A stretch of DNA of 4,689 bases from a virus (lineage: Duplodnaviria > Heunggongvirae > Uroviricota > Caudoviricetes): the IMG/VR virus record IMGVR_UViG_2713896777_000007. The stretch is one strand, 5' to 3'. The number at the start of each line of letters is the position of its first letter. The stretch's first letter is position 1. Shown one piece after another: positions 3,001 to 4,689 of the stretch. The position numbers are program-made.

Positions 3001-4689
3001 TAATCACGCTTCTCCCCTTCGCCATCAGCCGATTGCCAATCGCTGCTGCCAGGTGATTTTTACCGGTACCAGGTTTACCGCTGAACACGAAGTTTGTACA
3101 TCCGGTCATCAATTCATCGGCAATGGATTTCGCCTGGCTCAGAGCATGGCGCTGACCGTCGTTCTGCACCCGGTAGTTCCCGAATGAGCACTTCCTGTGA
3201 AGCGGCTGGATGCCCGCACGGTTCAGGATTTTTTCAACCCGCACCTGATGATTCAGGCGGTTAATCTCCTCGCTGCGTTTTCGTCCTTCAGCAAGTTGCC
3301 ATTCCCGCCACTCCTCCACCGTCCGGTACGGTGGAACCGCCCCCCTGTGGTGCAAGTCTGCGAATACGTTCAAGAACCCCAACTGCCGCAATGTTTTTCA
3401 TGACACGTCACCCCCTGAATCCCGGCGGTATTTCAGTGTCCGGTTCAGAAATGTGATTCACGCAACGCTGCGCGGGCGAACGCCCCAGGCGGATAACCAG
3501 TTCATCCCATTTTTCCCGGAGTTTTGCCGGACTCATGATGTTTTTTACCCAGAACGAATCCCGCTGGAGACGCCCAAACATTTCACAAATTTGTCTGTGA
3601 GTTCTGCCATCCAGCATCCGCATTGTGCGAACGTCATTGGCCCATGCTGTCCAGTTGGGTTCTTTCGGTCTAGTGATCTCGCCATCATCGCTGGCCGCCT
3701 GCTCGTAAAGACTCACGATTCGTCCCCAGATCCACTGTGCGCACACCAAATCTTCCTGACTTCCCCACTGGCGTTTTTTCGCACTGAACACAACCGCGTC
3801 AGGGTGTCGGGTTAAAAAATCCTGTTCAGCCGTCTGCGGGTCCGGTTGCGAAGCGTCCGGACAAGAAGATCTTTTATCTGACGGCTCAGGTTTTAATACT
3901 GACGGATCGGGGTCAATCATCGCCCCCCTAATCGGCAGTTTGTTATCAACAGTTGATCCATCAAAATTTGACGGGTCAACCGTTGAGGGGGCAATATTTG
4001 ACGGGTCAACTGTTAACGGGTCATTTTTTGCCGGGCTAATTTTTCTTTTCGGTTTATATGACTCACGCGCCGCCGCCGCAGCTGCTTCGAGTTTTTCCAC
4101 ATTAAGCCGATAGATATTGCTTACATTACGCCCACCGACCTTACGCTCTTCCTTCGTCAGCCAGCCCTCTTTCGCCAGTTCTGCAATAGCCGATTTCACT
4201 GTGGATTCACTTCTTGCACCGATCTGACGCCGGATAGTTTCAATGGCAGGCCATGACACGCCCTCGTCATTGCTGTAGTCTGCAAGACGGGCCATAACCG
4301 CCACCCTGGATAAGATCATGCCGGTGAAGGCGCACCCTTCCCAGACAAGACCATGAAGCTTGCTGCTCATAAAACCCCCGAACACCGTGCTTTTAGTGCA
4401 TCACCACAGCATTCCCTGCCGGGCCGCCGCGATTCATCTGGTCATACAAAACAACCGCTGACGCAACAAAATCATCGACATCCTTCACCAGCCGATCCCT
4501 CCGTTCGACGATCTCACGGTAATATTCAGAACTGTGGCTGCGCATACGGGCCACCAGCAAAGGCGGCATCGCCTTTTCGATCGCCGGTAACAGAGCCTGC
4601 ATTTTTTCAACAGCATCAGGGGTGTCTTTATCCAGCCAACGGAAAATTTTCTGGGTATTACGGGCCAGGGCTTCCGGATGGCTGTCGTC

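Follow-up and report, generated by a model that had tools for sequence, protein, structure and literature searches.

We identified a tail of 20 residues, matching the end of the E. coli primosomal protein DnaT, at the extreme C-terminus of a lambda-O-type replication initiator encoded by a prophage, and we propose, with a probability of roughly 0.6, that the tail acts as an exchangeable short linear motif of a loader-docking route, coupling the initiator to the DnaB-DnaC (or DnaB-DnaC-like) complex in place of lambda P. The initiator is encoded on the minus strand of a 4,689-nucleotide stretch of Caudoviricetes DNA (IMG/VR virus record IMGVR_UViG_2713896777_000007; the whole stretch analysed is hereafter called the window), and the gene that follows it encodes a DnaC-like helicase loader. 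The features on which the argument turns are these:

3408..4370, minus strand: initiator gene, 320 aa plus stop (open reading frame list; PHROG 391; ATG at 4370)
3411..3470, minus strand: DnaT-type C-terminal tail, residues 301-320, QRCVNHISEPDTEIPPGFRG, predicted disordered (BLASTP, predicted local distance difference test score (pLDDT), DNA junction)
2660..3391, minus strand: DnaC-like AAA+ loader gene, 243 aa, TTG start (PRK12377, PRK07952, IstB_IS21)

The DnaT sequence of E. coli K-12 ends in ...RDVNTVSEPDSQIPPGFRG, just as the first-pass annotation of the window had given it, and the initiator ends in ...RCVNHISEPDTEIPPGFRG. In a single BLASTP comparison, initiator residues 301-320 were aligned with DnaT residues 160-179 at 14 of 20 identical and 18 of 20 positive positions (E 1e-7), both matching stretches being the extreme C-terminus of their protein and both terminating in IPPGFRG. 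When all PDB sequences were searched with phmmer, the DnaT chains 2ru8, 6aep and 9zbt were the only ones returned at E <0.1 (E 0.01-0.03), and they were returned via the tail. The NCBIfam DnaT model likewise aligned residues 300-320 to its positions 159-179 only (E 0.004), and a profile-profile comparison of 98 members of the initiator family with 107 DnaT sequences gave an E-value of 1.3e-5, the confident columns all lying among the last ~17; the same comparison with the tails removed gave E 0.85 and a probability of 0.05%. The C-termini of PHROGs 18526 and 3729 also match the tail only, and PHROG 1701 matches residues 234-320. In DnaT itself the conserved tail reads ...SEPDxxIPPGFRG, with conservation of at least 90% for the closing IPpGFRG across 108 sequences. 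The tail has pLDDT values of 40-53 both in the full-length AlphaFold2 (AF2) model and in a separate model of the C-terminal domain, and such predicted disorder is expected of a docking peptide.

Outside the tail, nothing of DnaT was found in the initiator. With the tail removed, BLASTP detected no similarity to DnaT, and fold comparison detected none either; the Pfam DnaT domain (PF17948) had no match in the initiator, and its score of 16.8 bits against the NCBIfam DnaT equivalog (PRK02854) lies below the cut-off of 201 bits. The three-helix-bundle domain with which DnaT binds single-stranded DNA (ssDNA; DnaT ~89-153) is absent, as are the N-terminal oligomerisation domain and the acidic PriB-binding linker of DnaT, an HTH_36 domain being present instead and no part of the initiator aligning to DnaT 1-88. 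The initiator therefore lacks every defining feature of a DnaT protein bar the tail. Within the tail, the likeness is genuine, exceeds chance and is exact in position; it does not extend any further. The first-pass annotation had taken the last ~60 residues for a DnaT-like C-terminal domain. That likeness holds for the last ~20 residues only; the remainder is a lambda-O-type domain (E 3e-26), and without the tail the folded part shows neither a DnaT fold nor a DnaT profile, so that profile and structure comparisons with the DnaT C-terminal domain left a profile match of the tail and no match of a domain or a fold.

We then considered which proteins carry this tail, using a loader-based sample of 80 viral contigs with relatives of the DnaC-like loader, in 77 of which the gene upstream of the loader could be recovered. 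The upstream gene ended in IPPGFRG in 76 of the 77 and in IPPGFSG in the remaining one. These 77 genes encode 55 distinct proteins, whose N-terminal bodies fall into at least six types: HTH_36, MKLLFAERPLVIN..., MRNYATISPQFW..., ...MANAWLRLWHDMPNDPKW..., DUF1376/YdaU-like and MASNWIKLEV.... Proteins with bodies other than the MKLLFAERPLVIN type share only residues 301/302-320 with the initiator, and the MKLLFAERPLVIN-type body has the lambda-O-type C-domain as well. At the DNA level, similarity to the loci with unrelated bodies sets in at 3468-3470, which is codon 301 and hence the first residue of the tail, and spans the whole loader gene. The Rac-type ydaU-ydaV pair has the same arrangement of tail and loader, YdaU ending in ...RQVNTVSLPDSAIPPGFRG. 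By sequence comparison, these data show the tail to be a portable module, and they suggest that it is exchangeable.

We also tried the reading that the YdaU-like (DUF1376) and 'MASNWIKLEV' initiators possess a whole DnaT C-terminal domain, as they align to DnaT 93-179 with a BLASTP E-value of ~1e-9. However, we rejected it, since taking off the last 21 residues left pairwise E-values of 0.002-0.075 and hidden Markov model (HMM) E-values of at least 0.2. Searches of large protein databases with a profile of 40-residue C-termini yielded short partial fragments only, and with the last 40 residues as query, an exhaustive search of representative sequences gave 24 matches, mostly fragments.

The type of tail was compared with the type of loader in an initiator-based sample of 79 species-level genomic loci with relatives of the initiator, 74 of them full-length and from diverse species, where a GFRG-type tail was defined as GF[RK][GSTA], a P-like gene as a match to Pfam PF06992, and neighbours as genes within 3.5 kb. 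P-like loaders were found at 0 of 45 GFRG-type loci versus 11 of 29 loci with other tails (Fisher p 8.3e-6, uncorrected for phylogeny), the 11 P-associated initiators having tails of the WxxTL type or AGVLP. The tail classes of the family comprise ...EIPPGFRG; ...SQIPAGFRG; ...ENSGFRS/T; ...WNSPEAWENTL with ...WNTAQGWEDVL; ...NWIDGIEDDLVNAGVLP; and ...IWxQ...; among them, lambda-O-like tails such as ...WNSPEAWENTL and ...NWIDGIEDDL occur with P-like loaders, and initiators with a DnaC-like loader or with no phage loader carry ...[IV]PxGF[RK][GS] tails. This association supports one part of the first-pass annotation, namely that a DnaT-derived element takes the place of the lambda P arrangement, given the 0/45 against 11/29 loci and the tail upstream of 77/77 loaders; its scale was wrong, however, the element being a tail of ~20 residues and no DnaT domain.

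At 44 of the 45 GFRG-type loci, the 3.5-kb flanks contain no DnaC-, P- or DnaB-like gene, and the genes directly downstream of GFRG-type initiators were classified as PerC-like, methyltransferase, DUF1627, ParB-HTH and antirepressor. Therefore, we rejected a specificity of the tail for DnaC paralogues encoded by phages; its target should be a host component or a feature shared by DnaC-type loaders.

Some members of the family have other or variant endings. A third tail class (...AWxGIWQQAAEQAA..., ...RWNAIWKEQAQR...) was seen at 15 loci of Providencia, Proteus, Yersinia, Buttiauxella and others, none of which has a recognisable gene for a loader or a helicase within 3.5 kb. The initiators of loci L110 and L133 end in ...DYDIPDGWKGA and ...DYEIPDGWKGA, respectively, a conservative change of IPxGFRG with W in place of F and K in place of R, which suggests that the motif is [IV]PxG[FW][RK]G. 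On a contig of an uncultured Serratia sp. metagenome-assembled genome (L149:3501-4403), a relative of the initiator is followed by a DnaC-like gene; it has an internal ...DIPEGFNQ... and ends in ...NQGGTDDDFI, an ending that we take to resemble the acidic C-terminal peptide DDDIPF of SSB.

The initiator consists of four parts, a winged helix-turn-helix (wHTH) head, a linker predicted to be disordered, a lambda-O-type C-domain and the DnaT-type tail of ~20 residues, likewise predicted to be disordered. On the proposed mechanism, the initiator bound at the origin would be docked by its tail onto the complex of DnaB with DnaC or a DnaC-like loader, the likeliest target of the tail being a DnaC-type loader, either that of the host or the phage paralogue. 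Such docking would render lambda P unneeded, and DnaT might use its tail likewise at restart sites; in O-type initiators, the peptide at the very C-terminus would then be the element that selects the loader. If the tail does dock in this manner, we hold DnaC to be a rather more probable direct target than DnaB. Only tentatively do we extend this reading to the host, where the route by which the PriA/PriB/DnaT preprimosome recruits DnaB/DnaC was stated as unknown in a 2026 cryo-electron microscopy (cryo-EM) study (PMC13377028): the DnaT tail might recruit DnaB-DnaC to the PriA-PriB-DnaT preprimosome, lambdoid phages might have grafted it onto at least six unrelated initiator bodies so as to bring DnaC-type loading to their own origins, and the host dnaT-dnaC pair and the phage modules might represent one and the same mobile adaptor-loader unit.

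Several points weigh against the docking of the tail on a DnaC-type loader. A 2018 review documents no interaction between DnaT and DnaC (PMC5778457), the 2026 cryo-EM study proposes the N-terminal domain of DnaT as the recruiter of DnaB/DnaC (PMC13377028), and we found in the literature neither a described function for the DnaT tail nor a DnaT-DnaC contact. DopC, a chromosomal protein described below, reportedly combines a DnaT_C motif with a lambda-P-like partner, which would weaken the exclusivity of tail and P if that motif includes the tail (PMC5509034). As a phage loader is not found near most GFRG-type initiators, the survey does not separate DnaC, DnaB and other host factors; moreover, the Fisher test ignores phylogeny and the flanks cover 3.5 kb only. 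The 77 viral loci are close kin (loaders 77-100% identical) and not independent, and a conserved tail plus loader is where homologous recombination would put the junction anyway, so that their co-inheritance is no proof of contact between tail and loader.

Of the alternatives, the one that fares best, although we consider it unlikely, is that the tail binds DnaB itself; DnaB, with any bound loader, would then be tethered at the origin by the initiator and at restart sites by DnaT. The 44 of 45 GFRG-tailed initiators without a nearby phage loader point to a common host protein of Enterobacterales, for which DnaB fits as well as DnaC, and both DnaA and lambda P contact DnaB directly (PMC13377028, PMC5043065). 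However, phages of the lambda P type need host DnaB too, yet the tail was found in 0/11 of them, and the tail always accompanies phage DnaC paralogues and adjoins dnaC in the host operon; neither observation is decisive.

That the tail recruits PriA, PriB, PriC or SSB instead, so that a PriA-type primosome is assembled at the phage origin, seems improbable to us. The acidic residues of the tail followed by I-P-x-x-F are loosely similar to DDDIPF of SSB, with the L149 protein ending in ...GGTDDDFI, and DnaT does contact PriA, PriB and PriC (PMC5778457, PMC13377028). However, the mapped contacts run through the acidic linker of DnaT in the case of PriB and through a hydrophobic face of its folded C-terminal domain in that of PriA, the tail being named in neither; DnaT 84-153, which has no tail, still forms the ssDNA filament (PMC4132743); and the exclusion of the tail from lambda-P-type modules would be left without an explanation.

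An equally improbable idea is that the tail has no docking function, either being carried along by mosaic recombination 5' of DnaC-type genes or having another role such as a degradation signal, for although lambda O is a known protease substrate and the DNA junction coincides with the onset of the homology that runs into the loader gene, the motif is preserved as a protein sequence across 108 chromosomal DnaT sequences, a degradation signal does not predict the exclusion from P-type modules, and [IV]PxGF[RK][GS] is kept by 44 initiators of many genera despite otherwise diverged tails and the absence of an adjacent DnaC-like gene, which rules out hitch-hiking as the explanation.

The loader gene is the DnaC-like gene that the first-pass annotation had noted directly after the initiator (2660-3391, minus strand). 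Its product matches NCBIfam PRK12377 over its full length with 467.9 bits against a cut-off of 389 (E 7.5e-141). Against the NCBIfam DnaC model PRK07952 it scores 298.6 bits (E 3.5e-89), under the cut-off of 357, and thus it is a paralogue and not the host DnaC; it also matches Pfam IstB_IS21 (E 1.5e-19) and is 47% identical to E. coli DnaC. In E. coli, dnaT lies directly upstream of dnaC, which parallels the order of initiator and loader in the phage. The N-terminal region of DnaC binds DnaB. In the loader of the window, the first ~20 residues (3320-3391), MRQLGFLNVFADLHHRGAVPPY, differ from MKNISTGGILERVRRLAPPHVAAPF in Shigella phage POCJ13, the two homologues being otherwise 88% identical, and several viral relatives of the loader align only from residue 18-21 on. 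It is possible that the N-terminus of the loader is variable or recombinant, or that the difference is one of start or frame.

The initiator gene was placed at 3408-4370 by the first-pass annotation, and this open reading frame of 320 aa stands, with the addition that it lies on the minus strand; an alternative GTG start at 4385 is unused among database homologues. The protein matches PHROG 391 'replication initiation O-like' (E 3.5e-115, residues 1-320 versus profile positions 1-298) and shares 98% identity with the 3163 E. coli sequences of an NCBI cluster that start with MSSKLHG. Homologues in phage records are labelled "replication initiation O-like", "DNA replication protein O" or "primosomal protein I". 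Apart from a DNA-binding head unlike that of lambda O and a DnaT-type tail, the protein is unremarkable among the lambda-O-type initiators of E. coli prophages. Its parts before the tail, together with a repeat array inside the gene, are as follows:

4059..4370, minus strand: winged helix-turn-helix DNA-binding domain, residues 1-104 (HTH_36, AF2, Foldseek)
3867..4046, minus strand: predicted disordered linker, residues 109-168 (pLDDT <50)
3471..3914, minus strand: lambda-O-type C-terminal domain, residues 153-300 (confident fold ~178-297)
3938..4039, no strand assigned: iteron-like array of 12-bp imperfect palindromes of the TTGACGGGTCAA type with a 15-bp period (repeat search, direct reading)

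The C-terminal domain is helical and homologous to that of lambda O, being 35% identical by BLASTP to lambda O 145-277 (E 3e-26), and within the family it is conserved and the tails are variable. In neither lambda O (L243:187-1086) nor the initiator (3471-3914) does this shared domain match Pfam-A at E <=0.01, and the Pfam models cover only the N-terminal domains, Phage_rep_O in lambda O and HTH_36 in the initiator; in an earlier paper, PF09524 was matched to the C-terminus of lambda O by HHpred. The COOH-terminal region of lambda O is the part proposed to bind P, and its last five residues are essential, since Oam29 (294/299 aa) is null (PMC6022878).

The N-terminal ~80 residues had been read as a helix-turn-helix, which agrees with our results and is extended by them to a wHTH domain of ~100 residues. 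Pfam HTH_36 matches residues 25-71 (E 2.1e-6), the AF2 model has helices at 3-15, 20-31, 43-50 and 55-67, a hairpin at 71-89 and a helix at 91-104, and Foldseek with the full-length model picked up only this domain, its matches being wHTH proteins of the MarR/PadR/ArsR type. No BLASTP similarity was detected between this N-terminus and that of lambda O (Phage_rep_O, PF04492), and Pfam gives HTH_36 only; the two are of one general fold class and belong to separate families.

The repeat array sits in the part of the initiator gene that codes for the linker. Its copies start at 3953, 3968, 3983, 3998 and 4013 (TTGATCCATCAA, TTGACGGGTCAA, TTGAGGGGGCAA, TTGACGGGTCAA and TTAACGGGTCAT), with weaker copies at 3938 and 4028, and the repeat search reported a direct-repeat family of five copies at 15-nt spacing plus an inverted repeat. 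The A+T profile gives 68% A+T for 4020-4059, which overlaps the upper end of the array. Homologues are 320, 315, 310 and 305 residues long, that is, they differ in steps of 5 aa, and 5 aa correspond to one 15-bp unit. As the lambda record annotates four ori iterons, of 18 bp, within O, the array is by analogy probably the phage origin embedded in the initiator gene, and the wHTH domain probably binds these 15-bp-spaced palindromes in its own coding sequence.

The initiator thus resembles lambda O in its place in the early-right operon, after cII and before the loader gene, in its homologous C-domain, in the repeats within its own gene, and in the succession of an N-terminal DNA-binding domain, a flexible linker and a C-terminal partner-binding region. 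However, it has an HTH_36 head where lambda O has Phage_rep_O and a DnaT-type tail where lambda O ends in ...TDWIYGVDL, it is followed by a DnaC-like AAA+ loader rather than by P, and its repeats are 12-bp palindromes at 15-bp spacing in contrast to the 18-bp iterons annotated in lambda. With E. coli DnaT it shares the last 20 residues and the position of its gene directly upstream of a DnaC-type loader gene, but DnaT is a restart factor, whereas the initiator is phage-encoded and a putative sequence-specific origin binder. The modules of Rac (ydaU-ydaV) and of POCJ13 (gp16-gp17, 'primosomal protein I'/'DNA replication protein') have a loader of the same DnaC-like family and the tail on the upstream gene; their bodies (DUF1376, the 'MASNWIKLEV' type and others) are unrelated to the initiator, so that the tail alone is common.

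The closest published architecture is that of DopC from Cellvibrionales/Oceanospirillales, an O-like protein with HTH_36 and a 'DnaT_C motif' (HHpred to 2ru8_A) whose ancestor is a lambdoid O gene (Brezellec et al. 2017, PMC5509034). The gene is chromosomal and domesticated and has no iterons; the partner of DopC is the lambda-P-like DopE, and DopC reportedly has no lambda O C-domain (PMC5509034). Both proteins thus combine an HTH_36 N-terminus with a DnaT-derived C-terminal element, which in the initiator is the tail only; in contrast to DopC, the initiator resides in a prophage, has kept the lambda-O-type C-domain and the internal repeats, and has a DnaC-like partner.

The gene in itself is routine, being present in thousands of E. 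coli prophages, and the combination of HTH_36 and DnaT_C was published in 2017 for DopC. What we did not find in the literature are the restriction of the DnaT likeness to the tail, the grafting of the tail onto many unrelated bodies, and the anticorrelation of the tail class with lambda-P-type loaders. The tracking of tail and loader provides a testable hypothesis on the function of the DnaT tail. If the tail is indeed a docking peptide, this would account both for the linkage of dnaT and dnaC in an operon and for the modular way in which lambdoid replication modules evolve, and it would offer a handle for predicting the loader dependence of prophages from their sequences.

The window shares 99.9% identity with prophage DNA on the chromosomes of E. 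coli O26 and of further Shiga toxin-producing E. coli strains. All genes of interest lie on the minus strand and are transcribed in the order cII-like, initiator, DnaC-like, DUF1627, the first and the last of these being:

4393..4602, minus strand: cII-like gene, directly upstream of the initiator (PHROG 163 'CII-like transcriptional activator', E 2.5e-11)
1873..2634, minus strand: DUF1627 gene (PF07789, E 2e-88)

The cII-like gene directly upstream of the initiator fixes the locus as a lambdoid prophage replication module. In RefSeq the initiator is named "helix-turn-helix domain-containing protein" and the loader "ATP-binding protein". Shigella phage POCJ13 has the identical gene order, in the classic lambdoid layout of cI, cro, cII, initiator, DnaC-like, DUF1627 and Ren-like. 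The DUF1627 protein (1873-2634) has two HTH-like segments at its N-terminus, and DUF1627 genes are found downstream of DnaC-like genes in POCJ13 and Rac (ydaW) too, so the gene may be part of the replication module. An 88-N masked run at 1111-1198 breaks a small minus-strand open reading frame at 1097-1342, leaving this gene partly unreadable. Also downstream of the loader, a DUF551 protein and a DUF4014 protein are encoded at 224-781 and 783-1001, respectively.

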